This document shows, in pieces, positions 1 through 61,871 of a stretch of DNA of 61,871 nt; positions within the stretch are counted from its first letter, which is position 1, and the number at the start of each line of letters is the position of its first letter. The position numbers were made by a program, and so were the translations under genes. The notes beneath the pieces were generated by a model that saw nothing but the letters and a program-made list of their open reading frames with translations, was not told where the DNA came from and did not search any database. The DNA comes from a virus (taxonomy: Duplodnaviria; Caudoviricetes): IMG/VR virus record IMGVR_UViG_3300042465_001631, positions 1 through 61,871 of that record; one strand, given 5' to 3'.

Positions 1-127
1 CTAACGGCTGCGGGTAGCATTGCAGAGCGGGATTTGAAACCGCTACACTATCCACCGCTACAAAAAGATATTGAAAGCAGTAAAGTTAAATATGCCGTAA
101 TACCCCGCTTTGCTGCTACCCGTTGTT
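1..127. repeat. Terminal overlap, identical to 61745-61871 (circular assembly signature)
   Basis: First 127 nt equal the last 127 nt; a 127 nt overlap is typical of a k=127 de Bruijn circular contig. Confidence 0.9.
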
Positions 128-129
128 AG
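1..129 (-). repeat. attC-like site A (junction copy)
   Basis: CTAAC-ggctg-CGGGTAGCA-tt-GCAGAGCGGG ... CCCCGCTTTGC-TGCTACCCG-tt-GTTAG imperfect inverted repeat. Confidence 0.8.
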
Positions 130-154
130 GGGCTGGTATTAATAAATAAACAAA

Positions 155-406
155 ATGCAAGTTGAAAAATTACCGCAAGACGATTGGAAATTAGACAAAA
201 TTGAGTTAGAATTTAAATCTTATGGTGAAGACCAAGGAAAATACGTTGGTAAAATTCGTTTTCAAAATGGCGAATACGAAAGTTTTTCTTTTAAAATAAG
301 ACCTGATATGGCACAGCCTTATATTGAATTAATAGGTGCTGATATTGTTAAATGTGCTGAGTCGCTTGGAGCAAGATTGGCTGAGTCACTTGGATTAAAG
401 AAGTAG
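155..406 (+). CDS. Cassette-borne hypothetical protein (83 aa), identical to 59004-59255
   Basis: ORF with A-rich leader, flanked by GTTAGGGGC / GCCCCTAAC. Confidence 0.8.
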   Translation: MQVEKLPQDDWKLDKIELEFKSYGEDQGKYVGKIRFQNGEYESFSFKIRPDMAQPYIELIGADIVKCAESLGARLAESLGLKK

Positions 407-434
407 TAAAATCGGGGCGAGGTTATACTTGCCC

Positions 435-559
435 CTAACGATGGTGCTATACGAAGGAGGCGATTATTAGCACTAAAGTTGATGCGGAGTACAAAATTTG
501 AATATAGCAGAATGTTTCTGCGGAACACCGAACCGCCTCTTTTGTATAGCACGTGTTAG
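435..559 (-). repeat. attC-like site G
   Basis: CTAAC-gatg-GTGCTATAC-gaag-GAGGCG ... CGCCTC-tttt-GTATAGCAC-gt-GTTAG. Confidence 0.8.
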
Positions 560-594
560 TGGCTGGGGCGGTTTTTAACGATAAATATAAATAG

Positions 595-8175: not shown

Positions 8176-9756
8176 ATGAAAAAATATACGCAGGAGTTTA
8201 AGGACTCAGTACTACATTATTTTATGTCTGGAGGCACAATCACTAAGGCTTGTGAACTAACTTGCGAGGCACATAATATTCCTTATAATGATGGAGTTCG
8301 TAGAAAAGTATCTAAATGGTTAGAGGAGAATAATATCTCTAATAATATAGAGCTTGAGAAGACCGACGTATTCCAAGAGGCTAAGAAGAAAGTGTTTGAT
8401 GAGTCTAAGCAAAGGTTCATAATCTCATGGTGTCAGTCAGAGACGGATATTAATGAAAGATTTTTTACAAATATAGAGGCTTATGCTAAGCATATTGACG
8501 CATCAATACATATTATTGCTGGTCGCTATAAGAATCCAATTTCATTGTCTGCCAGTAAGTCGCTTAAGAATAAAGAAGATTTACTGCAAAATTCTTGGCA
8601 CGAAAGAGCTTTACCTTATTTAGATGCCAATAGACACAAAATACACAAGCATTTATGTATATTATCAGACCTTAAAATTCAGCCTACAGCATCTACACCA
8701 TTATCTGGAATTAATGGGCTTACAGGGCTTGAATCGTGTATCGTAGGGCATCCAAGGGTACACCTGAAGTCATTGCCAGTTTTAAATGGTTATCCTCAAA
8801 AAACACTACTAACTACTGGATCAGTTTCTATTGAGAATTATACTGACACAAAGGTTGGAAAGAAGGGTGAATTTCACCATACTTACGGATTTGTAGTAGT
8901 AGAACTTGATGGGGATAACTTCCATATTAGACAGGTTACTGCCGATGAAGATGGTACATTCTATGACCTTGAGTTGTCTGTTATAGATGGAATTGTAGAG
9001 AAGCATAATGAGCCTACGGTAATAGTATTTGGTGATTTACACCTTGGAGAAACTAATGAAGGAGCGCTTAAAGTGTCATTTGAAATGGCAGATAGATTAA
9101 AATGTAGCCAGATTATCTTACACGACGCATTTGATTCTCATAGTATCAGCCATCATGAAAGAACACAACCGTTTCAATTACTTAAGCGTGAGGAGAATGG
9201 AACAGATAATTTATTTGAAGAATTATTTAATTTATCTGATTTTTTTGAATCTCACTCAGAATATAACTTTGGAGTTGTTCGTTCAAATCATTGCGAATTT
9301 CTTGATAGATGGTTAAACGATGTTGACTGGAGAAAGTCTAGGAACAAAATGGCATATCTACAACTAGCTACATCATTAGCATTTGATAAAGATAATAAGG
9401 GGGTTATTCCAATGTACTTAAAGGAAGTTGGGGTTACTAATGCCTTCTGCCTAGGAATTGATGATAGTCTTAGAGTGCTAGACTGGGAGCTCGGGGTACA
9501 TGGTCATATTGGTGCTAATGGAAGCAGAGGAAGCGCTATACAGTTTGCTCAAATGAATACCAAAACTATTACAGGACATACTCACTCTCCCTTAAGATTA
9601 GACGGTCATGTTTGTGTTGGAACCATGACAGATTTAAGAGTAGGTTACAATAAAGGTTTGTCTAGCTGGAATCACGCAAATGCAGTTATTTATCCAAACG
9701 GCAAGGTTCAATTAATAATTATAAATAAAGATACTTATAAATACACTACGCTATGA
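8176..9756 (+). CDS. Calcineurin-like metallophosphoesterase with N-terminal HTH (T5 A1-like architecture)
   Basis: GDLHLG, HDAFD, SNH, HGHIG, GHTHS; duplicated domain layout. Confidence 0.7.
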   Translation: MKKYTQEFKDSVLHYFMSGGTITKACELTCEAHNIPYNDGVRRKVSKWLEENNISNNIELEKTDVFQEAKKKVFDESKQRFIISWCQSETDINERFFTNIEAYAKHIDASIHIIAGRYKNPISLSASKSLKNKEDLLQNSWHERALPYLDANRHKIHKHLCILSDLKIQPTASTPLSGINGLTGLESCIVGHPRVHLKSLPVLNGYPQKTLLTTGSVSIENYTDTKVGKKGEFHHTYGFVVVELDGDNFHIRQVTADEDGTFYDLELSVIDGIVEKHNEPTVIVFGDLHLGETNEGALKVSFEMADRLKCSQIILHDAFDSHSISHHERTQPFQLLKREENGTDNLFEELFNLSDFFESHSEYNFGVVRSNHCEFLDRWLNDVDWRKSRNKMAYLQLATSLAFDKDNKGVIPMYLKEVGVTNAFCLGIDDSLRVLDWELGVHGHIGANGSRGSAIQFAQMNTKTITGHTHSPLRLDGHVCVGTMTDLRVGYNKGLSSWNHANAVIYPNGKVQLIIINKDTYKYTTL

Positions 9757-10289
9757 AAGAAATATGGATTGATGTAATTAATTTTGAAGAAAATTATCAA
9801 GTATCTAATATGGGTAGATTTAGAAGTAAAGATGCCGTTATAAATAGAACTGATGGAAAGTCTTATGTAAAAAAGGGAAGAATACTAAAACCAACATACT
9901 ACTCAAACGGATACAATCAATTAATGTTATATAAAAATAAAAAAAGATATACATTTATTTCTCATAGAGTTGTAGCAAAACACTTTATACCTAATATAGA
10001 TAATAAAAAAGAAGTAAATCATATTAATAATTTAAAAGATGATAATAGGGTAGAAAATTTAGAGTGGTGTACTCCATCTGAAAATATACAAAAAGCACTA
10101 ATATATAATCCTAATTTTGGAAAAAATAGAGGAAGGGAGAATGATAGATTAACGGAGACAGATGTAATTCAAATAAAAAAAATGATTAATGATAATTTAA
10201 AAAATAGCGAAATACTATCTAAATATAAAATATCAGCATCTTCTTTTTTTAATATAAAATCTAATAAAACATGGTCTCATTTAAAATAA
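9753..10289 (+). CDS. NUMOD4-HNH homing endonuclease
   Basis: EIW...YQVSNMGRFRS; HRVVAKHF...VNHINNLKDDNRVENLEWCT. Confidence 0.9.
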   Translation: MKEIWIDVINFEENYQVSNMGRFRSKDAVINRTDGKSYVKKGRILKPTYYSNGYNQLMLYKNKKRYTFISHRVVAKHFIPNIDNKKEVNHINNLKDDNRVENLEWCTPSENIQKALIYNPNFGKNRGRENDRLTETDVIQIKKMINDNLKNSEILSKYKISASSFFNIKSNKTWSHLK

Positions 10290-10569: not shown

Positions 10570-13500
10570 TTATCTACTTCCACTCTGAGTTCTAGTTCCA
10601 GATGATTCTCTACTTCTACTTTCGCTTCTGCTTCCAGACGAACTTCTTCCTCCAGACGTATCTTTAACATCTTCAGGTCTTAATCCTAGTTGTTCTACCA
10701 TTCCTCCTTGGAAATATCCACTAGCAAATCCACTAGCCTTATACTCATGCTTAATTTCTGGTAATCCATTAAGTCCTCTATAAATATCTCGAACATCTCT
10801 TACTACTCTCCAAGGTATTATAGGTGTAGATAATCTACTTCCAACTAATTGACCAGCTCCTCCAAGTGCCTTCTGAGTTTTACCAGATGCAGCGTTCTTT
10901 AAGGCTCGTTGAATTTTCTTACCTTCATCAAAAGCATCTGCCTTTATGTTCATCTGCTGACCTAAGAACTCTCCAAGTTTTTTATCTTTTTGAGCTAACA
11001 TAAACTGTACAGCTGGAGGATTTGTTTTCTTCATATACTTATTAGCCCAAGGATTTTTCTTTAACCAGTCATACAGGTCATCATCTGCTCCTGTTGCGCT
11101 AGCTAATGCAAACGCAGCTAAAGTTACAGCAGCTCCAATAAACATTCTTGTATTAGCATTCTTCGCTAATAACTGATACTTCAAATCTTTTTCAAGATTC
11201 TTCATGCCTTCTTCAGTGCTAAGATCAAGTTTACTCCCTCTCGATTTAATGTTCCAGTATATTGTGCTTAAAGTAGGAATACCTGCCTTCTGAGCAGCAA
11301 GCAATGTCCAGTTAGTACCACCTCCAATATAAGGGTTAAGTATGTTAGTAGTAACTATAGAAGCGGCAGTTAATGCAGCAGCATCATTCCATTTCTTATC
11401 CTTTACAGCCTTATCAGTTCTAGTTTGAACCCAAGAGTTAAATAAGTTTAATGGTTTGGATATAATATTATTCGGTTCATGACCTAATTCAAATCCAGCT
11501 ACCGTTTCAGCAGATTTTAACGATGCCTCAAGCTCTTCTAATGTTATTTTATTTCCTCTAACTAATGCTTCATTAACTAAATCATTTGCAAATCTATAAA
11601 TACTTTCCTTAGAGTCTGGTATAACCTTTTTACCAGCATCTTCATTTATTTTATCAGTAATTTGTTTTGCTGTGACTAACGCATCTTCAAATGACTGACC
11701 AGTAAGTTGCTCTGAAACATAGTTCTTAGCTTCTGATTTAGAATAGCCCTTCTTTCTAAGTATTTTTATCAAGTTATAATGAAAGAATCCTTGAGCAAGA
11801 GCAGCCTTGTGCATACTATCGGCAGACTCTAAGAATGGTTTCCCAAGAGCAGTAGAAGTTAGTGCGTGATATAATCTACTATCACTTGCGTTAACAATTA
11901 AATCCATTGTCTTGCTCTTAGTAATGAATGGAGAGGTTACATCTCCAAATTCAAGACCATTACCTAATGTAATATCCTTAAATGTCATACTAGCGAGTTT
12001 ATTTCTTGATTCCTTTAATGATTTCGTATCTACATTATCAAACATAAAACCAACTTTTTTAAATGCTCTTGAAATATATCCAGACGTTGTATTCTCAATA
12101 GCTTGAGCTACAGATACTAATGCATTTCTTTGAGCAAGACCTACAAACTCTTTAGCAATAGTTATTGCTTTATATAATCCATTAGACTCAGACCAGGCAA
12201 CCTTACTAAGTAGTCTCTCAATCTTTTTATTTATAGCTCTCTCTGCTTGTTTTAAATATACTTGATTTAATTGATTTCCATCACTATCTTTTTGAGAAAA
12301 CAATTCAGATAAGCTCTTAGCTAAATTCTTAGCCTCATTAAAACTTTTCTGATCCAATTCGTTCATACCAAGGGCAGTATTTATTAAGTGGTCATAGGTA
12401 TCAGATTCTTTCTCAAATAAGCCATAGTTATATAGCTCGGCAAGTTTTTTAGCACTAGTCTTTAAGTTAACCTTCTTCCTAGGTATATTTCTTCTTTCTA
12501 ATTCGTTTAATGACTTCTCGATAATACTAGCTCTAAGATTATTATACTCTTCTACCAAGTCTTTAGCAGCATCTTCTCCTATTATCTTCTCTACATTTTC
12601 TTTTATTTTTTCTACACTTCCCTCTTCTCCAGCAAGTTTCTTCCAATCAAGTACATTACGTTTTTTACCCTTAACTGTAATTTCCTTACCAAACCCAGCC
12701 TCTATTAAAGCCTGGTTAACTATATCCTTATTAGATAATTCCTTATCCTTAATTTCTTTTTCAGATATTCCTTCAGTTTTAAATCCTTGAGTCATATCAT
12801 CTCTAAACATTCCCTCATTAGCCCAGTCCTTACCATACTTTTCTTTGATATGGTTTATACCAAGTTCAATAGCGTCAGCTATATTAACACCAGCCTTTAT
12901 AGAGTTTTTAATAACTGTTATACCAGAATCAATCAACGCAATAGGAAGACCTATAGTAGCATCATAAGCTCTGCCCTTAAGTTTCTTCTGTATCTTCTCT
13001 AACGCAGCTATAGCCTTATCAGCCCTAACTCTTCTAGCTGTAGGAAGTTTCTTATATATTTCGTTTATCTGTTTTTCAACGCCACTAAGTATAAGTTGTT
13101 CTATATCAGACTCACTAACTATAGATTCGTATTCTTTTTGAATGGTATTTGCATCGGATTGAATAGCTTTTTCAACTTCTTTCTTAGCTCTTAATTGATC
13201 ACCAGATAAGAATCCATCTGTAATTGACTCATAGTTAAATCCATCCTTCATGATAGCTCTTAATCTACCCATATTAATAGCTAAAGAAGATTCTCTTAAG
13301 AACTGTTGAGATTTTGCTCTAACTAAGTCCTGTAGTTTCTTTAATCCAACATTATTAGGTTCTGAATTAACTAAATCAAACATTTCATTCTCTAACGACA
13401 CATACACAAGAGCTTTCTCGTGAGCCTTTAAGTTTGCTGTATCAAGAAATTCAAGTGTCTTTTCAATATACTTATCACCATAAACTTCCTTAGCCATGGC

Positions 13501-16500
13501 AACAGTTTCCTTTCCATGAATACCAGCCTCAACAAGTGGCATAATATCTATCTCTTGAATATTGCGTGGAGCCTCTCCTTCAACTCTCTCTATAGTTTCG
13601 CCACTTAAGTATTTTCCAACCTTACTAGACTCAGGAATATCCTTAACCTTATCTCTAAAAGCCTCTATATCATTAGTAGCTTCCTTAACTTTAAAAGAAT
13701 CAAGTACCTTAGCTTCATTAACTACATCATCGAAATGTACATTAAAAGCCTTTGCAGCCTCCGAAATATGATTAGCAGTAACAATACCTCCCTCAGCAAT
13801 ACTTTTGGCTATTTTAGCCACCATATCGATTATGTCATTGGCACTAAATCCATTTTGTTTATAATCGTCTATATTTATATTTGCATTAGGAAACAAATCA
13901 TTAATAGCTTTTAATTTAGCTTTAATAGTATCTGCTACTTCATCTATCTTAGCGTTTGATAGCTTTATTTTTTCTTCGACTGTTTTTCTAGAAACCTCTT
14001 TAGCGCTAACGCTTTCAAAACCTGTGCTCTTGTTAAATTCTTCTTCATAGTAATTAATTGCATCCTCATCGGATAGTTCGTTTATATAATCATCTTCTGC
14101 TTTAATTGCTTCATACATCGCCAATTCTTTTTCAGATAAACCACCTAAAAAAGCATCAGCCTCTTGTTGTTTAAGTTTATCGGACTCCTCACTTGTTGCG
14201 CTCACTAATTTATCCCTAACTTCAGCCAACGAACCATTACTATTTATAATGTCAATAAGTTGATTTCTTATTTCTTGTTGGTCTAGTTCAGGATAATCAC
14301 TTGCTAAGTCTTCAGCTAATTTTTCAATAGAATCTGCTTTTTTGTCAGTAACCCAACCTGCTTTATCTCCAGTTTCTTGTTTAGGGTTATTTACCTTAAT
14401 TCCCTTTGCTAAAGCGTCTAATGCTACTTCATATTCAGTAGTAGGAGTAAACTTATCTAAAGCGTCTCTAAATATTTTTTCTTGCTCTACTTTAATTTTA
14501 TTATTAGTAGTAACGCCCATCGCTTCGGCTTCTATTATGGTATAATTGGAGTTTTTCTTTAATTTAACCTCTCCTTTATTGTTTTTATACTCAATAAATC
14601 GTTTGACTTCTACACCTTTCTTAGTAGTTATCTTAGTAACGTTACCATTATCGTCGTAGGTTATATCGTATTTAGATTTAACTTCTTTTGGTGCAGTTAG
14701 TTTTATAGGAGTAGGAACTATGTCTTCAGTAGGTTTAACCTCTACTGGAGTTACTTCTTTTACTGGTAACTCTTCTTTTTTATAATTTTCTATAACCTTA
14801 TCTAATAAAATAGCGTCTGGTACTCCATTTGGAAAATCAGTTTCTATTTTTTTAGCTATGCTTAATGCTTCATTTAAATCGTCAAAATATAAATTATCCT
14901 TAGGTAATTCACTTCCTTTTTCTCCTACATTTAAAACATATTTACCTTTATCACCATAATTATTATCGTTTAATCTATGTTTACTAGTTTCGAAATATAT
15001 GTTAGACCCATTTCCTAATTGTCCTATTGGCTTAATTTCTTCAGCAATTTCAGTAACCACCTCTTCAGTAGGTTTGACTACTTCAGTAACTACTTCAGGT
15101 TCATACTTAGCGTCTATAAGAGCATTTCTTTCTGTTTGAGCATCTCTATAATCTGATTCTAACGACTTGATTAGTTCTGCTTTGTTTGGTAAGTTGCCTT
15201 CATTTATAGCAACAGCCTCTGTTTTAATATCAGCAACTTTATTGTTTAAATCAATAATCTTTCTATACACATCGTCAGGCATATTATTTACCTTTTCTAT
15301 TGTATTAGCTATTATGTTAGAGTTCTGAGCTGTAGCCTTGTCTATTTGTTTGGTTATTACAGCTCTTTCAGTATCATTTAAAGATTCATTCTCTAATTGT
15401 TTAGAAAAGTCAATAATCTTTCTTGAGTTCTCATCTAAAACATTTAAATCGCTATTATTTTGATGTGACTTAAGTATTGCTCCAGCAACATGCGGAGCTG
15501 CTTTTAATATATTTGTTAGTGTAAATGTATCCTTAAGAACTGTACCAGCATTATCTAATAACCCTACATCTTTTTTGCCTAAAACGTATTTATTTGTAAA
15601 GTTTTGTGTAAAATTAGTAAACTCCTCACCAGATATTTCTTTACTCATATCAACAGACCAGTCCTTAGCCCATTCCTTAGCCCTTTCTTTTACAGTTTTT
15701 TTTATTAAATCACCTTCATTCTTTACAATAGCATCGATAACTCTTCCTCCTTTTGTAAGTATAGATAGCGTAGGTATCTCAGATATTACCTCAGCAGAAC
15801 CCCAAAGAGCTGGAGCTACCGCCATTTGTAGCGGAGAATAAGTAGCTTTACCTTCAAGAACTTCTTTATTCATTTCGGTATATTTCTCACCAGTAGATGA
15901 AATACCAACGACTCCTAACCCACCTATACCAGTTGACGTAGCTACAAGATTAGGTATTTGCTTAGATATAATGTCAGAAGCGTAGTTTATAAAACCTTCT
16001 GGGCTTTCAATACTTTCCACTGACTTTCTTAACTGACTCTCTTCGTCAGATATATAGTCGTTTATTTTATTTGTAACTTGCTGACCAGCTAGTGAATATA
16101 ACTCTCCCTGAGCCCCCATTCCAAATTTAGCAGCGTAGTTAGTAAAACCTAATATACCATTTAATATCTTAGTACCTCCTAAGCCAATATTTGTAACTGC
16201 ATTATCTATATCTCCATACCTTCTTTTAAGTAAATCAAATTCTTGTTTTACAGTGCCTAAATCCTCCTTGTTCTTGTTTATTACAGATTGTCTTTTCTGT
16301 ATGCTATTTCCAATACCAATTATCTCATTACCTAAAGATACGTACGATTCGTACGTTTCTTTTGGAAGCGGTTGATTATTATTCTTATACTTAAGAAGTT
16401 CTTGCTCTATAGTTTTATACTCATTTATTTTCTTGTTACCTATTACCTCATAGGCATTTATAGCTTTTTCTTCTTTTAGATTATTTTCTTGTAAGTGCTC

Positions 16501-17373
16501 ACCTAAATTTTTTCTACTTTGCTTTAATAGATTCTTATCATTTTCATCAAGATTATCTAAGAATGAATTTAAATTATCAGTTTCAATATAATCTTTTTGT
16601 TTGTTTTTATATAATTGCTTTGCACGTTCTTCTACTTCAACATCACTTAGCTCTATTTTATTTTTAGCAGCATCCTTTAAAACCTCTTTCTTTTCATCTG
16701 ATAATACATCGGTATCTGCCTTTAGTTTATCAACTCCAATAGCTCTTAGTGCAGGCTGATCTAAAACAGCGTTGTACATGTCTATTGAAGTGGACTTTAC
16801 ATTATTCCAAATACCAGTATTAGTAAGTGCATCATTTAGTCTTTTATCAGCCTCGACCTCAGCAGCCTCATCATCCTTAGCAGTCTTAAATTGCTGCTCT
16901 ATTTCAGATAATCTATTATTGCTAATCGCATCTTGTTCTTTAATTACAGATGAAAGCTCATCAGTCTTTCTTAATATTTCTTCTTGGTTCTGAGGAGTTA
17001 CTTTAGTAGTAGCTAATTCTTTCTGAAGTGTAAGTTTTTTGCCTATTAAAGCAGCTGATTTAGATATTTTAGGAACAGGTTTAGCCTGAAGAGTCTGTTG
17101 TTCTTCAGGTGTAAATCCAGTAAATATTTTCATTTTAGGTGGTCCACCTAAACCATCCGATTCCACAGGAGGTTGAGTTTCTTCTGTATCCGATGAAGTA
17201 GGAGTAGGTTGAGTTTGTGTATGAGAAGCCAATTGCTTTTTTGGAGCAGTAGGTTGAGTAGCTACTTTTTTTTTTGAGTCAGCAATATAAAGGTCTATAA
17301 TTCTCCTTACATCATTGTCACTAGCTCCTTGACTTTTAGCTCCTTCTATTAAATTTCTTAATTCCTCGTCCAT
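10570..17373 (-). CDS. Large internal virion/ejection protein (2267 aa)
   Basis: Size, helical composition, position at end of structural operon. Confidence 0.6.
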   Translation of the reverse strand: MDEELRNLIEGAKSQGASDNDVRRIIDLYIADSKKKVATQPTAPKKQLASHTQTQPTPTSSDTEETQPPVESDGLGGPPKMKIFTGFTPEEQQTLQAKPVPKISKSAALIGKKLTLQKELATTKVTPQNQEEILRKTDELSSVIKEQDAISNNRLSEIEQQFKTAKDDEAAEVEADKRLNDALTNTGIWNNVKSTSIDMYNAVLDQPALRAIGVDKLKADTDVLSDEKKEVLKDAAKNKIELSDVEVEERAKQLYKNKQKDYIETDNLNSFLDNLDENDKNLLKQSRKNLGEHLQENNLKEEKAINAYEVIGNKKINEYKTIEQELLKYKNNNQPLPKETYESYVSLGNEIIGIGNSIQKRQSVINKNKEDLGTVKQEFDLLKRRYGDIDNAVTNIGLGGTKILNGILGFTNYAAKFGMGAQGELYSLAGQQVTNKINDYISDEESQLRKSVESIESPEGFINYASDIISKQIPNLVATSTGIGGLGVVGISSTGEKYTEMNKEVLEGKATYSPLQMAVAPALWGSAEVISEIPTLSILTKGGRVIDAIVKNEGDLIKKTVKERAKEWAKDWSVDMSKEISGEEFTNFTQNFTNKYVLGKKDVGLLDNAGTVLKDTFTLTNILKAAPHVAGAILKSHQNNSDLNVLDENSRKIIDFSKQLENESLNDTERAVITKQIDKATAQNSNIIANTIEKVNNMPDDVYRKIIDLNNKVADIKTEAVAINEGNLPNKAELIKSLESDYRDAQTERNALIDAKYEPEVVTEVVKPTEEVVTEIAEEIKPIGQLGNGSNIYFETSKHRLNDNNYGDKGKYVLNVGEKGSELPKDNLYFDDLNEALSIAKKIETDFPNGVPDAILLDKVIENYKKEELPVKEVTPVEVKPTEDIVPTPIKLTAPKEVKSKYDITYDDNGNVTKITTKKGVEVKRFIEYKNNKGEVKLKKNSNYTIIEAEAMGVTTNNKIKVEQEKIFRDALDKFTPTTEYEVALDALAKGIKVNNPKQETGDKAGWVTDKKADSIEKLAEDLASDYPELDQQEIRNQLIDIINSNGSLAEVRDKLVSATSEESDKLKQQEADAFLGGLSEKELAMYEAIKAEDDYINELSDEDAINYYEEEFNKSTGFESVSAKEVSRKTVEEKIKLSNAKIDEVADTIKAKLKAINDLFPNANINIDDYKQNGFSANDIIDMVAKIAKSIAEGGIVTANHISEAAKAFNVHFDDVVNEAKVLDSFKVKEATNDIEAFRDKVKDIPESSKVGKYLSGETIERVEGEAPRNIQEIDIMPLVEAGIHGKETVAMAKEVYGDKYIEKTLEFLDTANLKAHEKALVYVSLENEMFDLVNSEPNNVGLKKLQDLVRAKSQQFLRESSLAINMGRLRAIMKDGFNYESITDGFLSGDQLRAKKEVEKAIQSDANTIQKEYESIVSESDIEQLILSGVEKQINEIYKKLPTARRVRADKAIAALEKIQKKLKGRAYDATIGLPIALIDSGITVIKNSIKAGVNIADAIELGINHIKEKYGKDWANEGMFRDDMTQGFKTEGISEKEIKDKELSNKDIVNQALIEAGFGKEITVKGKKRNVLDWKKLAGEEGSVEKIKENVEKIIGEDAAKDLVEEYNNLRASIIEKSLNELERRNIPRKKVNLKTSAKKLAELYNYGLFEKESDTYDHLINTALGMNELDQKSFNEAKNLAKSLSELFSQKDSDGNQLNQVYLKQAERAINKKIERLLSKVAWSESNGLYKAITIAKEFVGLAQRNALVSVAQAIENTTSGYISRAFKKVGFMFDNVDTKSLKESRNKLASMTFKDITLGNGLEFGDVTSPFITKSKTMDLIVNASDSRLYHALTSTALGKPFLESADSMHKAALAQGFFHYNLIKILRKKGYSKSEAKNYVSEQLTGQSFEDALVTAKQITDKINEDAGKKVIPDSKESIYRFANDLVNEALVRGNKITLEELEASLKSAETVAGFELGHEPNNIISKPLNLFNSWVQTRTDKAVKDKKWNDAAALTAASIVTTNILNPYIGGGTNWTLLAAQKAGIPTLSTIYWNIKSRGSKLDLSTEEGMKNLEKDLKYQLLAKNANTRMFIGAAVTLAAFALASATGADDDLYDWLKKNPWANKYMKKTNPPAVQFMLAQKDKKLGEFLGQQMNIKADAFDEGKKIQRALKNAASGKTQKALGGAGQLVGSRLSTPIIPWRVVRDVRDIYRGLNGLPEIKHEYKASGFASGYFQGGMVEQLGLRPEDVKDTSGGRSSSGSRSESRSRESSGTRTQSGSR

Positions 17374-56142: not shown

Positions 56143-56655
56143 ATGGGAAACTGGAGAAATTCATTTACATCGCCATTTATGGCAAGTTGGGATATAGACA
56201 AGCCAACAATATTAACGATAGAATCTGTAGAACAGAAAGTTGTGCAGTTACAAAAGTCAGAGCAAAAAGTATTAGCAACATTTGTTGAGAAAAAGTTTGA
56301 CAACGGAGAGGAAGTTAAAAAGATGATATTAAATGCGTCAAATTGCAAAATACTTCATAAAGCTACAAATTCAAACAACACAGATAACTGGAAAGGTATT
56401 AAAGTTGAGATTGGAGTAATTGCCAACAAAGGAAGGATTGGAAACGAACTTGGATTATCTATTTTAAGGGTTATCGGAACGCAACAAACACCAACGGTAA
56501 TTGAACTAAAAATTGACGACGCAAATTGGAGTAAGGTATTGGAATACATAAAAGCTAATAAACACTTAGGATTGGCTCCAATAGTAAAAAACCTACAATC
56601 AAAATATACTATATCAACAGATGTTAAAAAAGAACTTGGAAAAATACTAGGATAA
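56143..56655 (+). CDS. Putative recombination/ssDNA-annealing-associated protein
   Basis: K.MILNASN...W.G.KV pattern; directly upstream of the exonuclease. Confidence 0.45.
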   Translation: MGNWRNSFTSPFMASWDIDKPTILTIESVEQKVVQLQKSEQKVLATFVEKKFDNGEEVKKMILNASNCKILHKATNSNNTDNWKGIKVEIGVIANKGRIGNELGLSILRVIGTQQTPTVIELKIDDANWSKVLEYIKANKHLGLAPIVKNLQSKYTISTDVKKELGKILG

Positions 56656-56657
56656 AT

Positions 56658-57380
56658 ATGAAAGAAATAATAAATAATTTAAGAGATGATTCTAAATATT
56701 ATGGATCATACGGAGACCAATTCTTATCAAATAGCTCAGTAGGAGTATTACTAAATAATCCTAAATTATTTGGAGTAAAGCAACAACCAACCGTGCCAAT
56801 GCTACAAGGTAGCTACTTCCATACAGCACTTCTGGAACCTGAGAAGTTAAACAACTTTGAAATAGTTGAAGCAAGTACAAGGAATACAAATATTTATAAA
56901 GACGCTTCAAATGGTACATTATTACTTCTTAAAAATGAAGTAGATAATCTAAATGAAATGATTAAAACTATCAAATCTAATTTTAAATTTTATGAAGATA
57001 TTTATTCAGAAGGAAATGTATATGAAGAACCAGCGGTAAAAGAACTGTTTGGGCACCAATTCAAAGGTAAGTGCGATATTATAACAAATGATTTTTTAAT
57101 TGATATAAAAACAACATCAAGCATTAAAGATTTTAAATGGTCAGCTCGTAAATACAATTACGATTCGCAATCGTTTATATACCAACATTTATTTGGGAAA
57201 CCATTAGTTTTTTATGTAATAGATAAAACAACACTTGACTTAGGTATTTTTGAATGTTCTGAAGAATTTATAATGAATGGAAGAGCTAAAGTATTGGAAG
57301 CAATAGGAATTTATGAAAAGTTTTATGGTAAAAAGGCTTCAGAAGATATAAATAATTTCTTTTTGCAAGAAGAATTGTAA
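56658..57380 (+). CDS. RecE/Exo VIII-like PD-(D/E)xK exonuclease (DUF3799)
   Basis: LSNS, GSYFHTALLEP, KGKCD, IDIKTT, Y..Q...Y. Confidence 0.85.
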   Translation: MKEIINNLRDDSKYYGSYGDQFLSNSSVGVLLNNPKLFGVKQQPTVPMLQGSYFHTALLEPEKLNNFEIVEASTRNTNIYKDASNGTLLLLKNEVDNLNEMIKTIKSNFKFYEDIYSEGNVYEEPAVKELFGHQFKGKCDIITNDFLIDIKTTSSIKDFKWSARKYNYDSQSFIYQHLFGKPLVFYVIDKTTLDLGIFECSEEFIMNGRAKVLEAIGIYEKFYGKKASEDINNFFLQEEL

Positions 57381-57403
57381 TTATTATATTATATTTGCAT
57401 TTC

Positions 57404-57473
57404 AGCTACGTGGTATAGTGGTATTATATTGAGTTTTTCCTCATTGAGGCAGGTTCGATTCCTGTCGTAGTGC
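57404..57473 (+). tRNA. tRNA-like cloverleaf with a 6-nt anticodon loop (pseudo-tRNA, identity unassignable)
   Basis: GCTACG/CGTAGT acceptor, TAGTGGTA D-loop, TGAG/CTCA stem, GCAGG-TTCGATT-CCTGT T-arm; TATATTTG promoter at 57390. Confidence 0.55.
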
Positions 57474-57531
57474 TAAACAAACAGGGTAGCCGAAAACTGA
57501 TTAGAGTAGGCGAATTTAAAATAAAATAAAA

Positions 57532-57855
57532 ATGGAATTAACAGGGAAAATTGAAGTAATTAGTTTGAATGTAGGAAATGAAAAATTCAAAAAAAGCGAA
57601 TTAGTAGTAACCACAGATGAAAAATATACACAAAGTATCTTAATTGAGTTTGGTGGTGATAAATCAGACTTAATAGATGCTTATAAAGTAGGAGACGAAG
57701 TAGAGGTATCGATTAATATTGGAGGTAGAAAATGGACTAATCCAGAAGGTATTGACAAGTACTTCAATTCGATAAAGGGATGGAAAATCAAAAAACTATC
57801 TGAAGAGGCACAACCAACGCAAGCACAGGAACTAGCAGATATTCTTCCATTCTAA
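57532..57855 (+). CDS. DUF3127 single-stranded DNA-binding protein
   Basis: MELTGKI...VGDEVEVSINIGGRKW...YFNSIKGWKI; DILPF tail. Confidence 0.85.
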   Translation: MELTGKIEVISLNVGNEKFKKSELVVTTDEKYTQSILIEFGGDKSDLIDAYKVGDEVEVSINIGGRKWTNPEGIDKYFNSIKGWKIKKLSEEAQPTQAQELADILPF

Positions 57856-58109: not shown

Positions 58110-58207
58110 TGGAAAATATAGCAGCATTTTTAGTAGGATGTTTCTTCGTCCTATTTATATGGGTAAATACTTGGATCTATGAACAGTGGAATAATAAATT
58201 GAAGTAA
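58109..58207 (+). CDS. 32 aa membrane peptide whose TAA stop forms the first TAAC core of the array
   Basis: TAATG coupling; MENIAAFLVGCFFVLFIWV... Confidence 0.45.
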   Translation: MENIAAFLVGCFFVLFIWVNTWIYEQWNNKLK

Positions 58208-58233
58208 CGGATGGTGTTACCGCTAGTTGTGGG
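58204..58233 (-). repeat. Half attC-like site at the array's left end
   Basis: GTAACGGATGGTGTTACCGCTAGTTGTGGG resembles the left arms of sites G and D; no matching right arm found. Confidence 0.45.
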
Positions 58234-58276
58234 TTTTTACCGAAAAATTAATTATAAATACTAAATACAAAAAAAT

Positions 58277-58810
58277 ATGGGATGTGATATACACAGTTTT
58301 GCCGAAATAAAAAGAAACGGTAAATGGGAAAAAGTAGGAGAACATTTTTCGTTAGGAGAATGGGAAAAAGAATATTATAAAAAAGAAAAAAACGACAGTC
58401 CTTTTGATTGGAGAAGTTATTCAATGTTTGCATTTTTAGCTGATGTTAGAAATTATGACCATTGCGAACCAATAAGCGAACCAAAAGGAATACCCGAAGA
58501 TGTTTGTGACGAAATCAAAAGCGAATATGATGATTGGGAAAGTGACGCACATTCATCGTCTTACTTGACACTAAAAGAACTTTTAGATTTTGATTACGAT
58601 AAAGTGTTTTGGAACAGAAGAATTAATAGAACTACGTATAATGAAAATGGTGGTAGTTATACTAACGGAGCGTCATTAGCAGAAGAAGGAGAAGGAACTA
58701 ATGTAACGTATAGAGAAAATCTAGGAGAATTTTTCTTTATTCATTTGAAAGAATTGGAAGAATTAGGAAATCCTGATGAAGTCAGAATAGTTTTTTGGTT
58801 CGACAATTAA
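58277..58810 (+). CDS. Hypothetical phage protein (MGCDIH family) in the first, degenerate cassette
   Basis: MGCDIH...RSYSMFAFLADVRN...RIVFWFDN. Confidence 0.8.
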   Translation: MGCDIHSFAEIKRNGKWEKVGEHFSLGEWEKEYYKKEKNDSPFDWRSYSMFAFLADVRNYDHCEPISEPKGIPEDVCDEIKSEYDDWESDAHSSSYLTLKELLDFDYDKVFWNRRINRTTYNENGGSYTNGASLAEEGEGTNVTYRENLGEFFFIHLKELEELGNPDEVRIVFWFDN

Positions 58811-58849
58811 CTAAATTTCATTAAGAACCGCTAATGTAGTAATTAGCAT

Positions 58850-58978
58850 CTAACGGCTGCGGGTAGCATTGCAGAGCGGGATTTGAAACCGCTACACTAT
58901 CCACCGCTACAAAAAGATATTGAAAGCAGTAAAGTTAAATATGCCGTAATACCCCGCTTTGCTGCTACCCGTTGTTAG
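58850..58978 (-). repeat. attC-like site A
   Basis: Same as 1-129. Confidence 0.8.
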
Positions 58979-59003
58979 GGGCTGGTATTAATAAATAAAC
59001 AAA

Positions 59004-59255
59004 ATGCAAGTTGAAAAATTACCGCAAGACGATTGGAAATTAGACAAAATTGAGTTAGAATTTAAATCTTATGGTGAAGACCAAGGAAAATACGTTGGTA
59101 AAATTCGTTTTCAAAATGGCGAATACGAAAGTTTTTCTTTTAAAATAAGACCTGATATGGCACAGCCTTATATTGAATTAATAGGTGCTGATATTGTTAA
59201 ATGTGCTGAGTCGCTTGGAGCAAGATTGGCTGAGTCACTTGGATTAAAGAAGTAG
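59004..59255 (+). CDS. Cassette-borne hypothetical protein (83 aa)
   Basis: Identical to 155-406. Confidence 0.8.
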   Translation: MQVEKLPQDDWKLDKIELEFKSYGEDQGKYVGKIRFQNGEYESFSFKIRPDMAQPYIELIGADIVKCAESLGARLAESLGLKK

Positions 59256-59283
59256 TAAAATCGGGGCGAGGTTATACTTGCCC

Positions 59284-59414
59284 CTAACGGTATCTCGCTT
59301 TGTGTCAGTGGCGGATTAAAAAAGACTGACTTTCCGATTAATAACTAAACATACAAAAATGCAAGAAACATTAAATTTAGACCAAAACCCGCCATTGCAC
59401 AAAACTAGTGTTAG
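59284..59414 (-). repeat. attC-like site B
   Basis: CTAAC...TTTGTG-t-CAGTGGCGG ... CCGCCATTG-CACAAA...GTTAG. Confidence 0.75.
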
Positions 59415-59907
59415 CAAATCGGTTCCGAAAATTAAAACTTATGTGCTAACAGTTTCAGAATTTTTCCCTAAAACGCACAATAAATCAGGATTACCAACAG
59501 GATTTATTGATAAAATCGGAAGCAAAATTAAAAAGCACACCATTCGTGGAAATTACGAATTATGGAAAAAAAGAATTGAAGAAATACAAAAAGGAAATGC
59601 TGTTTTATCAATTCGTTATTGGCTTGGAAAACCTTATAATTCCAAGCAAAAAGAAGTTCATGTTTTAGATAAATATTCTGGAATTGGAGTTCAAAAATTA
59701 ACTTTTGAAGAGATGATTATGACTTGCGAAGATGTTTTAGAAACAAAATCAAAAGTAGGACTGCATATTTGGAAACCAAATTTTTCAAATATTAAAACTC
59801 TAGCGAAAAATGACGGACTTGAATTTGAAGATTTTAAAGAATGGTTTAAAGGTTATGATTTAAACGAACCAATGGCAATAGTTCATTTTACCGATGAACG
59901 TTATTAA
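59359..59907 (+). CDS. Cassette-borne ASCH/PUA-like protein; ORF begins inside site B
   Basis: KKHTIR...W and LAKNDGL...F..WF motifs. Confidence 0.6.
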   Translation: MQETLNLDQNPPLHKTSVSKSVPKIKTYVLTVSEFFPKTHNKSGLPTGFIDKIGSKIKKHTIRGNYELWKKRIEEIQKGNAVLSIRYWLGKPYNSKQKEVHVLDKYSGIGVQKLTFEEMIMTCEDVLETKSKVGLHIWKPNFSNIKTLAKNDGLEFEDFKEWFKGYDLNEPMAIVHFTDERY

Positions 59908-59914
59908 CTGTTTG

Positions 59915-59989
59915 CTAACGTTCCCACGATAGGGGCTGTTTGCCTATGCGGTTGCGTAAATTCGGCAAATAGACATTATCGTGTGTTAG
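59915..59989 (-). repeat. attC-like site C (short, 75 bp)
   Basis: CTAAC...ACGATA..CTGTTTGCC ... GGCAAATAG..TATCGT-gt-GTTAG. Confidence 0.75.
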
Positions 59990-60040
59990 CACCAGTAGCG
60001 GATTAATTAAACAAAAATATTAACTTAAAACAAAATAAAT

Positions 60041-60187
60041 ATGCCACCATTAAAAGAATACAGATTTGAGGATATGATGAACTCAAATGTACAAGTAGTA
60101 ATTAAATCATACAGCTTTACACAGGCTTATGAAATTTTGGTAATGATAACTAAACACCCTGCGGATTTTAAATGTACGAGTTTGTAG
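60041..60187 (+). CDS. Cassette-borne 48 aa protein (not in ORF track)
   Basis: MPPLKEYRFED...KCTSL fills the gap between sites C and D; A-rich leader. Confidence 0.65.
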   Translation: MPPLKEYRFEDMMNSNVQVVIKSYSFTQAYEILVMITKHPADFKCTSL

Positions 60188-60196
60188 CTATTGGTG

Positions 60197-60328
60197 CTAA
60201 CGTACGTTGAGCATTGTTGTAGTTGTGGATTAGGGCTGCCAAATTATCGATTAAACACTAATACAACCAAGTACAAAAACCAATTATTAATTAAGCCAAA
60301 TGCCACAATTGCCACAACGCATTGTTAT
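60197..60328 (-). repeat. attC-like site D
   Basis: CTAAC...GCATTGTTGTAGTTGTGG ... CCACAATTGCCACAACGC-att-GTTAT. Confidence 0.75.
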
Positions 60329-60354
60329 ATGATGGCTTTTTATTCACACAAATT

Positions 60355-60621
60355 ATGAAAGATTTTAAACAATTCAGAAGAAGTCAAATTGCAGAAATTA
60401 GAGAAGTAACAGAAGTAGATATTAATGTATTTAAGAATCACGGATTTATATATATATCAGAATATCTATTTGGTTTTAATATATCAATTTCCGATGCAGA
60501 TAAAAATAACGGAAGCCCTAAAATTGGCGATATGATTGCAAGAAATCCAAAAGACTACTCTGACCAATGGTTAATAGCTGAACAATATTTCAAAGATAAT
60601 TTTGAACAGTTAGTTGAGTAA
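60355..60621 (+). CDS. Cassette-borne hypothetical phage protein
   Basis: SISDADKNNGSPKIGDMIARNP...DQWL; start at ATG 60355. Confidence 0.75.
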   Translation: MKDFKQFRRSQIAEIREVTEVDINVFKNHGFIYISEYLFGFNISISDADKNNGSPKIGDMIARNPKDYSDQWLIAEQYFKDNFEQLVE

Positions 60622-60629
60622 GCTATCAT

Positions 60630-60715
60630 ATAACGGAAAAGCTTGTAGCTGTATGCCAAGAAAAACGTGAATCTAAAGAAAATAGTCGTAGCATATAGCT
60701 ACAAGCGTGTGTTAG
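60630..60715 (-). repeat. attC-like site E
   Basis: ATAAC-ggaaaa-GCTTGTAGCTGTATGC ... GCATATAGCTACAAGC-gtgt-GTTAG. Confidence 0.8.
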
Positions 60716-60749
60716 GGTGCGTAGTGGGTAATTAAAAATAAAAGTTATT

Positions 60750-61421
60750 ATGAAAAAGAATGTTTTAGAATTATTTGCAGGATCCCGCTCAATAGGAAAT
60801 AAAGCCGAGCAATTAGGAATGAATGTTTTTAGCGTAGATTGGACACCATACGAAAAAATAGATTTATCAATTGATATTGAATTATTGACTAAAGACCAAG
60901 TCCCATTTATTCCTGATGTTGTATGGGCAAGTCCTGATTGCACAACTTATACGATTGCCGCAATATCACATCATAGAAATGGAACAGAACCTAAAAGCGA
61001 TTATGCTTTAAAATGTGATAATGTAAATAAGCACTGGCTAGGCTTAATAAATGAATGGTTAATCATTAATCCTAAAATGGTATTCTTTATTGAAAATCCT
61101 CGTGGAATGATGCGAAAAATGCCGTTTATGAAAGGATTACAAAGAACTACTGTATGGTATTGTACTTACGGAGATTCGAGAGCAAAACCAACTGACATCT
61201 GGAGCAATAATATACAATCAATTTTTAATCAAAACGGATGGAATCCAAGAGCTGAATGTTTTAACGGTAATAAAAAATGCCAACACGAAAGCGCACCGAG
61301 AGGATCAAAAACAGGGACACAAGGAAAAAAAGGAAGTTACAACCGTTCTAAAATACCTGAATTATTATGCGAGGATGTGCTAAATTCAATTATGAATGAT
61401 AATCGTAGCTATGCACCCTAA
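60750..61421 (+). CDS. Cassette-borne short C5-cytosine DNA methyltransferase-like protein
   Basis: LELFAGS (motif I), ASPDC (IV), IENP (VI), KPT; stop codon is the TAA of the next core. Confidence 0.8.
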   Translation: MKKNVLELFAGSRSIGNKAEQLGMNVFSVDWTPYEKIDLSIDIELLTKDQVPFIPDVVWASPDCTTYTIAAISHHRNGTEPKSDYALKCDNVNKHWLGLINEWLIINPKMVFFIENPRGMMRKMPFMKGLQRTTVWYCTYGDSRAKPTDIWSNNIQSIFNQNGWNPRAECFNGNKKCQHESAPRGSKTGTQGKKGSYNRSKIPELLCEDVLNSIMNDNRSYAP

Positions 61422-61545
61422 CGGCGGATGCTACACGATGGCTGGGAAAAGCACACACCCAAACTTCGGATAATGACTGATTAAAAAAGTACAAACTGAA
61501 CTTTAAATTTAAAAATTAACCCAACTATTGTATAGCGTATGTTAG
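61418..61545 (-). repeat. attC-like site F
   Basis: CTAAC...ATGCTACACGATGGCTGGG ... CCCAACTATTGTATAGCGT-at-GTTAG. Confidence 0.75.
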
Positions 61546-61570
61546 CAGTAGTTATAATACAGAATTTGTT

Positions 61571-61738
61571 ATGAAAGCACTATGCTTAATTATTTGGATG
61601 ATTATTTCATTATTATTTGTTTGCAGTATCATTGGATTGGTAATGTTTATACCTAAAGACAATTGGCAAAATCAAGAAAACACACCATCAACTTGGTATT
61701 CTATTGGTAAAAAATTGTTGAACAGTGTGGTTGAATAA
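61571..61738 (+). CDS. Cassette-borne 55 aa membrane protein (not in ORF track)
   Basis: MKALCLIIWMIISLLFVCSIIGLVMF...; fills the gap between sites F and A. Confidence 0.65.
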   Translation: MKALCLIIWMIISLLFVCSIIGLVMFIPKDNWQNQENTPSTWYSIGKKLLNSVVE

Positions 61739-61744
61739 TTACTG

Positions 61745-61871
61745 CTAACGGCTGCGGGTAGCATTGCAGAGCGGGATTTGAAACCGCTACACTATCCACC
61801 GCTACAAAAAGATATTGAAAGCAGTAAAGTTAAATATGCCGTAATACCCCGCTTTGCTGCTACCCGTTGTT
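61745..61871 (-). repeat. attC-like site A, equal to the terminal overlap with 1-127
   Basis: Identical to window start. Confidence 0.85.

Follow-up and report, generated by a model that had tools for sequence, protein, structure and literature searches.

Integrons are the textbook gene-capture system of bacteria. Here we compare with it, and with other described systems, an array of hairpin sites and small genes in the virus record IMGVR_UViG_3300042465_001631 (Duplodnaviria; Caudoviricetes), the 61,871 nucleotides (nt) of which were analysed at full length and are called the window below. We consider it quite probable that Flavobacteriaceae and their phages share an integron-like system and that this is one of its cassette arrays, devoid of an integrase. 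Comparison of sequences demonstrates core-specific exchange at the left core of the site, a mobile unit made of hairpin plus gene, and opposite gene polarity in phage and bacterial arrays. According to the available text of Nivina et al. (2016; PMC5027507), the integron integrase IntI cleaves 5'-AA/C-3' in R' of the bottom strand of the attC site, which is the strand that folds better; attC sites are 57-141 bp long, carry extrahelical bases on the arm opposite the cleaved core and have a central spacer of 5-6 nt on both arms.

Our literature search for a system specific to Flavobacteriaceae or to phages returned a single relevant study. Its available text (Qi et al., 2023; PMC9892861) reports integrase-less clusters of attC sites (CALINs) in virulent phages, with methyltransferase cassettes, and recombination by IntI1 of one site of the Polaribacter phage P12002L with attI1 (one of three tested phages). 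The sites are treated there as ordinary attC and two of them were called in P12002L, "with divergent directions", whereas gene polarity, the crossover core and a platform in Flavobacteriaceae, which are dealt with here, are not addressed in that text. In P12002L we recognised by eye at least eight sites of the window's family, all in the polarity relative to the genes that is seen in the window; these sites (57-70-nt forms) were missed by our covariance model of the site, R1, at default filters. Both arrays of P12002L (L080, 29180-29250 and 37200-37270, - strand) end in the same ~70 nt, starting TAACAACGGATAAAAC, and this repeated end may be an attI-like module. A CALIN is defined, with an attC model, as two or more consecutive attC sites that have no integrase nearby; the window holds eight sites, called with R1, and no recombinase gene. 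For Bacteroidetes, the available text of the IntegronFinder 2.0 preprint lists only In0 elements from earlier work and one complete integron, in Salinibacter. We found no paper describing the inversion of polarity, the left-core crossover, the cassette insertions and deletions in phages of Flavobacterium psychrophilum or the recombinase platform of Flavobacteriaceae that are presented below.

Each site is an imperfect hairpin of 85-140 nt which stands in front of a gene and reads yCTAACG ... TGTTAGrr on the + strand. It begins with a left core (yTAAC-G), the left arm having a bulge of 3-4 extra nt; a long stem with covariation and a loop follow, and T-GTTAr forms the right core. Right cores of the forms TTGTTA, GTGTTA and ATGTTA become TAACAA, TAACAC and TAACAT on the - strand, on which the initial annotation had likened the sites to typical attC top strands. 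The sequences it quoted are present: site B (430-564) reads GCCACTAACACGTGCTATAC...GTATAGCACCATCGTTAG on the - strand.

That annotation had also placed the crossover at the - strand G/TT on account of a duplication, and our analysis agrees. The duplication is exact over 440 bp (1-440 = 58850-59289) and has CTAACG at both ends; the duplicated unit carries hairpin A 5' of a gene for 83 amino acids (aa), and two different hairpin bodies come after its two copies. In lake-water metagenome runs X1-X4, some of which leave parts of the stretch without contig cover, the unit forms its own 440-nt contig in all four, at about twice the depth of its flanks in three (183 vs 99 in X1, 63 vs 34 in X2, 14 vs 5-8 in X4) and not in X3 (11 vs 12). 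Metagenome contigs are joined to other DNA at 61419, the left core of site S7 (X2, X4); a joint of 60683 to 61419 is weak, its shorter side being just 27 nt. Homology to the related phage locus L062 stops at the first TAACGG (58210) and comes back near 1717. At 1589-1597 a lone left core without a hairpin closes the array, an arrangement that is repeated in L062 and in phage FPSV-D15. The duplication, the end of the L062 homology and the lone core at the array end thus agree in supporting a crossover in the left (+ strand) core, equal to the - strand G/TT. Because exchange falls inside the left core, the mobile unit consists of hairpin body, right core, gene and next left core. Read on the - strand, such a unit is best described as a canonical cassette with its gene inverted, and the proposed inversion of the genes relative to canonical integron polarity is in this way upheld.

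The ends of the unit are complementary. In all eight consecutive site pairs of the window the extension of the right core can pair with the left extension of the site that follows over 5-6 nt beyond GTTA/TAAC, compared with 0-3 nt for the left extension of its own site. Across loci, 19 of 32 pairs of adjacent detected sites have this complementarity, whereas it was seen in 2 of 45 pairings within one site and in 3.8% of random pairs; in most of the failing adjacent pairs an undetected site lies between. Therefore, every gene is bracketed by a 9-10-bp inverted repeat, the classical cassette signature, and the two ends of a circularised unit would form a perfect 9-10-bp base helix. As in attC, the crossover lies in one core, with breakpoints at TAACG, and the first bases of the cassette are complementary to its own inverse core. 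The bracketing repeat leaves it undecided which core is cut; the 440-bp duplication decides for the left core in the window phage. Additionally, the gene at 59359-59907 and five of ten L062 genes (open reading frames, ORFs, at 5237, 5952, 6277, 6791 and 8629) have their ATG in the hairpin loop and continue through the right arm and core, so that hairpin and downstream gene must travel together. In homologous C5 methyltransferase genes of L062 and a Flavobacterium prophage the right core is read in the same frame and the hairpin bodies differ.

Independent evidence on the crossover comes from seven F. psychrophilum phages (FPSV-D15, FPSV-D35, FPSV-F7, 2A, 6H, 1H and 23T), whose shared segments are mostly 97.7-100% identical. 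They carry the window's site family and differ from one another by whole cassettes. Breakpoints at six different left cores give rise to at least nine different joints, and in every recent whole-cassette insertion or deletion the hairpin body stands directly after the junction, which consists of a 5-6-nt core between bodies that are otherwise dissimilar. In FPSV-D35 an insertion of hairpin and gene lies between TAACGT direct repeats, exactly at the core of the array end. No recent event among the seven phages has its breakpoint at a right core. Among the relatives found through the primase an array was seen in L062 only; the closest of them, L003, L006 and L026, have no sites in their variable region. 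Homologues of the 83-aa cassette gene were found in two viral contigs, outside cassettes.

The window is a complete phage record of Flavobacterium type from lake water; in GenBank it comes closest to Flavobacterium phages and to a record of an uncultured Caudoviricetes. Its array spans 58204-61871 and 1-1597, and the segment 1-594 considered initially contains only the last two sites. The eight hairpin sites correspond to nine matches of R1, one site spanning the contig overlap. All nine matches are on the + strand (E<=0.18), the top - strand match reaching 12.3 bits (E 1.2); two of the 26 training sites of R1 were drawn from the window. A scan of the window with Rfam, which has no attC family, gave only a tRNA at gathering thresholds. 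Nine cassette genes are bounded by the sites and every one is on the + strand, as had been claimed for all cargo genes; for four of these ORFs the strand is supported by family matches (N6/N4 methyltransferase PF01555, phrog_757, phrog_8581 and phrog_10141). The features of the array are, in order:

58204-58220, + strand: first core in stub form (TAACG, 5 nt, TGTTA), overlapping the stop codon of a conserved upstream gene; L062 homology ends here
58277-58810, + strand: cassette gene, 177 aa, function unknown (family match phrog_10141)
58845-58983, + strand: hairpin site A', with copy 1 of the duplicated cassette from 58850 (R1, 65.9 bits)
59004-59255, + strand: cassette gene, 83 aa, copy 1
59279-59419, + strand: hairpin site B', its loop holding the ATG (59359) of the next gene (R1, 94.1 bits)
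59359-59907, + strand: cassette gene, 182 aa, reading through the right arm and core of B' (family match phrog_8581)
59910-59994, + strand: hairpin site S4, short form (R1, 23.1 bits)
60041-60187, + strand: cassette ORF, 48 aa
60192-60333, + strand: hairpin site S5, left arm partly decayed (R1, 59.8 bits)
60322-60621, + strand: cassette ORF, 99 aa, TTG start (ATG at 60356)
60625-60720, + strand: hairpin site S6, short form (R1, 16.2 bits)
60750-61421, + strand: cassette gene, 223 aa, DNA methyltransferase, stop codon inside the next left core (family match phrog_757)
61413-61550, + strand: hairpin site S7, sharing 79% identity with a site in phage FPSV-D15 of F. psychrophilum (R1, 79.2 bits)
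61571-61738, + strand: cassette ORF, 55 aa, hydrophobic
61741-61871, + strand: part of hairpin site A at the 3' end of the window (R1 match from 61747), carried on at 1-134 over the 127-bp overlap of the contig ends
1-134, + strand: hairpin site A, with copy 2 of the duplicated cassette from 1 (R1, 53.3 bits)
155-406, + strand: cassette gene, 83 aa, copy 2
430-564, + strand: hairpin site B (R1, 78 bits)
595-1584, + strand: cassette gene, 329 aa, N6/N4 DNA methyltransferase (family match PF01555)
1589-1597, + strand: lone left core GCCACTAAC without hairpin, array end, attI-like; reverse complement of the site B right core and its extension
1630-1812, + strand: conserved gene after the array end, 60 aa, phrog_25647, weak match to DUF6290

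The fold of the sites was studied on a 26-site alignment (A2) of sites from the window, its relatives and the F. psychrophilum phages, for which the common structure was set by hand: TAACG and TGTTA pair as the base helix, the left arm has a bulge of 4 nt, and the stem measures 14 bp. TAAC-G and T-GTTA are invariant in all 26 sites, and the flanking positions match the RYYYAAC ... GTTRRRY consensus loosely. The cells of A2 pair in 90.6% of cases, against 66% in shuffled sequence and 34-46% when the partners are slid; compensatory changes occur at 12 of the 14 stem pairs and two G-T pairs are nearly invariant (26/26 and 24/25). RNAalifold returned no structure on an earlier mixed alignment of 21 sites, the arms of which were out of register. 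Folds of single sites beat shuffled sequence in four of five cases (z -2.7 to -5.4), S7 being the exception. A heuristic search for cores plus stem in the window and ~94 loci (~1.4 Mb) recovered 41 sites from the gene strand, compared with 8 from the opposite strand and 3 from shuffled sequence. In 49 distinct sites collected by an independent heuristic the left spacer is always longer than the right one, by 2-4 nt (most commonly 5 nt vs 1 nt), the stems of the sense strand have 50 G-T against 12 A-C positions, and the gene strand gives the more stable fold in 37 (Wilcoxon p 2e-5), counts that overstate independence because some of the sites are close paralogues. The crossover core and the better-folding strand agree, which points to the gene strand as the recombined one.

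The loops have features of their own. The 3' half of the loop keeps in many of the A2 sites an A-rich motif, roughly ACAAAAC-TTTAAATTAA-CC (for example at 61480-61520 of the window), and a mini-ORF encoded in the loop and beginning MMRNEN is common to two phages (L001 ~2940, L062 ~7086).

The comparison of gene polarity in phages and hosts that the initial annotation had proposed gave the split it predicted. In 20 phage loci all 77 model matches are in gene orientation. Of 44 distinct intervals, 43 have a sense ORF as their longest; in the remaining one the annotated coding sequence starts inside the site, and the deviation arises from the ORF bounds that we used. In bacteria the ORF that fills an interval runs antisense to the model in 31 of 33 cases (none sense, two without ORF) in arrays from the top R1 clusters and in 45 of 48 (two sense, one without ORF) in nine recombinase-linked arrays. 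Stops and starts abut the sites in the bacterial arrays, where the order is gene then site, i.e. canonical, with the gene upstream of and co-oriented with the attC-like top strand; the phage arrays have the inverted order. A further 80 viral contigs encode a homologue of the array-linked recombinase that is described below (39-49% identity, often short, 267 aa in L187). In these contigs all 268 model matches are on the strand of the recombinase, nearly all upstream of its gene, and an independent heuristic gave 377 vs 19 sites, with at least two sites in 59 of the 80 loci and 234 sense, 10 antisense and 14 ORF-less intervals (n=258). A lone core comes after the last hairpin of L187, ~55 nt before the ATG of the recombinase. 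Relative to the sites, the recombinase lies at the same end of the array in phages and bacteria, and in phages the coding direction of both the cassettes and the recombinase is flipped. These counts establish the phage cassettes, at the level of sequence, as mirror images of the bacterial ones in coding polarity. Phages and hosts appear to keep separate cassette pools. The search with one protein, the 182-aa cassette product, lends this weak support: homologues occur in 2 of 401 Flavobacteriaceae genomes, neither of them near a site. One bacterial array contains, in "phage" polarity, a truncated tyrosine-recombinase ORF of 158 aa (L126 8336-8812, G044:C2); the same interval also holds an ORF in host polarity.

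The host side of the system was sought in Flavobacteriaceae chromosomes. At E<=1e-3, R1 has matches in 112 of the 151 genomes sampled, and these are often clustered. A 347-aa tyrosine recombinase is encoded 1.1 kb from one of the bacterial arrays. It scores 211.7 bits with NF040815 ("XerA / integron integrase"; cut-off 220) and 195.6 bits with TIGR02249, the integron integrase model (cut-off 265), of which positions 180-238 remain unaligned; we take these positions to be the place of the IntI-specific insert. Its nearest solved structures by sequence are archaeal XerA (4a8e and 5hxy), followed by IntI4 (2a3v). None of the 401 Flavobacteriaceae genomes has a TIGR02249 match above cut-off, the control set being without an integron-bearing genome. 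An IntI with its specific insertion beside attI was thus not found, and since the linked recombinase falls below the IntI cut-off, "host integron" means here a Xer/IntI-like variant. Homologues of the recombinase at E<=1e-60 are present in 93 of the 151 genomes, strikingly often at contig ends, and many of them lie 100-300 nt from the end, as if arrays broke the assemblies.

An array follows directly downstream in 9 of the 11 inspected recombinase-like loci that have downstream sequence, its sites on the opposite strand and its ORFs co-oriented with the recombinase; the set of nine arrays is biased, because seven of them were picked for a site match on the same contig. Of five recombinase loci chosen blind to sites, that of G093 has an array, in G038:C10 and G029:C6 the contig ends just after the gene, and G001:C23 and G044:C13 have none. 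In eight of the nine arrays a lone core is found 40-135 nt from the recombinase gene, and its sequence matches, as reverse complement, the right core of the nearest site together with the 6 nt that follow (10/10 positions in six arrays, 9/10 in two). Judging by this complementarity, the lone core next to the recombinase gene of the bacteria is attI-like. In the orientation of the model it is a "left" core and thus gives independent support to the crossover assignment. These platforms are:

L123-L141: chromosomal platforms (recombinase, lone core, cassettes) in genomes G001, G028, G036, G093, G138, G139, G141, G144 and G151

Up to 16 co-oriented cassettes were seen in such a platform within the fetched 18 kb.

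Set beside integrons, the arrays are alike in having imperfect hairpins of similar size, inverse cores ...AAC/GTT... with the crossover in one of them, complementary cassette ends by which a circular cassette rebuilds the base helix, mostly ORFan genes, and a lone-core attI-like site beside a tyrosine recombinase gene. There are differences, too. No IntI scored above cut-off in the 401 Flavobacteriaceae genomes; the recombinase gene is co-oriented with the cassettes; and the phage genes are all inverted with respect to the sites. The 3-4-nt bulge lies beside the base helix on the crossover arm, whereas in attC it is the other arm that carries the extrahelical bases, and extrahelical bases opposite the cleaved AAC together with an unpaired spacer of 5-6 nt on each arm were not found. 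The likeness to typical attC that had been proposed therefore stands for the inverse cores and the crossover in one core, but not for the geometry of the extrahelical bases, which is mirrored: the site family is, by its core and fold features, attC-like in logic and not canonical attC. We know of no cassette arrays for XerCD. This Xer-family recombinase is similar in working on a folded strand, as the available text of PMC5027507 describes for single-stranded DNA of CTX phage; in contrast, cassette arrays are present here, on which the Xer/IntI-like enzyme would act. The PeSL cassettes of T4-type phages, as given in the available text of PMC2839356 and PMC4122927, share stem-loops that flank small variable early genes, modular shuffling and hyperplastic regions. 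They recombine between similar promoter and stem-loop motifs, whereas the window's family uses a 5-6-nt core between dissimilar bodies, with no sign of exchange by homology between motifs at these junctions, and has a tyrosine recombinase platform.

One might argue that nothing is inverted at all, i.e. that the + strand is the attC top strand, that each gene forms a unit with its downstream site and that exchange falls at the right-hand G/TT. The unpaired extra bases on the 5' arm of the + strand indeed have the look of a canonical top strand (PMC5027507, available text), and the pairing of right extensions with the left extension that comes next fits this polarity equally well. However, the duplicated unit has site A upstream of its gene and is followed by two different site bodies, the hairpin body comes directly after the junction in every recent whole-cassette insertion or deletion of the F. 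psychrophilum phages, and the arrays end in a lone left core without a body. Crossover at the right core would, moreover, part five of ten L062 genes and the gene at 59359-59907 from their start, and the opposite polarity of genes in bacterial arrays of the same site family speaks against it too. We regard canonical polarity as very unlikely. Somewhat lower still in our estimate, and lowest of all, stand single-strand HUH (IS200/IS605-like) peel-and-paste elements, or another type of transposon, inserting 3' of TAACG. They would account for a hairpin that lies just within the end of the element and for insertion beside a target that is short and conserved, but the Y1 HUH transposase of IS200/IS605-type transposons or PATEs has no match in the window (PF01797), and the gene consistently beside the arrays is a tyrosine recombinase. 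The crossover lies, attC-like, in the helix that the base of the hairpin makes with the distant cassette end.

Less improbable than either, yet still unlikely in our view, is that the hairpins are mainly regulatory or RNA elements (promoters, terminators or translation starts, PeSL-like) and that the shuffling is a by-product of homologous or microhomology recombination. This would suit the better fold of the sense strand with its conserved G-T pairs, the start codons in A-rich loops, the loop motifs conserved between phages, the few breakpoints inside homologous bodies and the exonuclease and single-strand-binding recombination module that adjoins the window array. But the junctions lie on a 5-6-nt core between bodies without other similarity, and the arrays are flanked by a lone-core site and by the gene of a tyrosine recombinase. 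Folding of the mRNA is not what is selected in bacteria, where the strand with the better fold is the antisense one of the genes. The hairpins may nevertheless have a second, regulatory role in phages.

Several observations weigh against an integron-like cassette array. The window phage encodes no recombinase that we could detect: searches of the window for PF00589 (tyrosine), PF00239 (serine) and PF01797 (Y1) were all empty. R1 was trained on phage sites only, the bacterial loci are a non-random set, chosen from the top R1 matches or by co-location with recombinase matches, and the link between enzyme and site is one of adjacency only. No array was found at the recombinase-like loci G044:C13 and G001:C23, and where R1 and recombinase matches share a contig about 15 placements judged by eye fit the platform layout and 6 do not. 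Four breakpoints lie inside related site bodies or a gene (L001 2495/2501, 2515, 5030 and 5720). The likeness of paralogous site bodies (93-96% identical) stops at the right core, which may reflect an older exchange at that core or homogenisation of the bodies. The folding bias to the sense strand in phages would suit a role at the RNA level too. Finally, because the asymmetry of the hairpin is mirrored, an attC model trained on IntI sites might call the other strand.

The array is embedded in + strand early and replication genes. On its 5' side lie a tRNA (57404-57473), a PDDEXK exonuclease and a DUF3127 single-strand-binding protein, and on its 3' side the conserved 60-aa gene is followed by a primase-helicase; no candidate recombinase was found among ten proteins of the replication module. 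The recombination module directly upstream of the array (56143-57855) comprises a 170-aa protein (phrog_21613), the PDDEXK exonuclease (DUF3799, exonuclease VIII-like) and the DUF3127 protein. Positions 1-127 equal 61745-61871 over exactly 127 bp, and this repeat starts exactly at the left core of hairpin A, itself duplicated at 58850; the "direct terminal repeat" resembles an overlap left by the assembler where a circular or permuted genome was opened at a repeat, and not a physical terminal repeat. Elsewhere in the window a gene for an HNH homing endonuclease lies at 9753-10289 (NUMOD4 and HNH_3), and another, recognised by eye, in the site-free variable region of the relative L026 (7055-7660). 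An ORF of 2267 aa on the - strand (10570-17373) begins the late region.

The integron-like reading suggests how the array could work. In phages the folded gene-sense DNA strand would be the strand that is recombined. The enzyme would be a Xer/IntI-like tyrosine recombinase of the host or a short homologue from another or co-infecting phage, and it would act in trans because the window phage encodes none. New cassettes would enter at the lone core 1589-1597, in the manner of the FPSV-D35 insertion. The array would be read by + strand early transcription towards the lone core, with some of the starts supplied by hairpin loops; the attI-like core is at the downstream end, and a phage early transcript entering from the distal end, as initially suggested, fits this geometry. 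Since the site fixes the orientation of insertion, cassettes of the host would come to lie antisense in phage arrays, as would those of phages in host arrays, and two gene pools would be kept.

A wider claim, which we see as evenly balanced between holding and failing, is that Flavobacteriaceae and their phages possess a second, IntI-independent kind of integron, with a Xer-like recombinase lacking the IntI insertion, mirrored hairpins, and two versions that are mirror images in coding, have separate pools and use one chemistry. Under this joint claim the bacterial order would be recombinase, attI-like core and gene-then-hairpin cassettes, and the phage order hairpin-then-gene cassettes, attI-like core and a short recombinase, with the coding strand recombined and the hairpins supplying starts.

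Integrons are regarded as rare in Bacteroidota. A related system is seen here in 112 of 151 Flavobacteriaceae genomes and in many phage contigs. Surveys based on attC probably under-count such arrays and may mis-orient them. The finding raises the question of how the choice of strand and the orientation are set without an IntI-specific domain, and of how anti-restriction methyltransferases and ORFan genes are acquired and lost as units by lytic phages. It also raises the question whether polarity isolates the cassette pools of the phages from those of their hosts.

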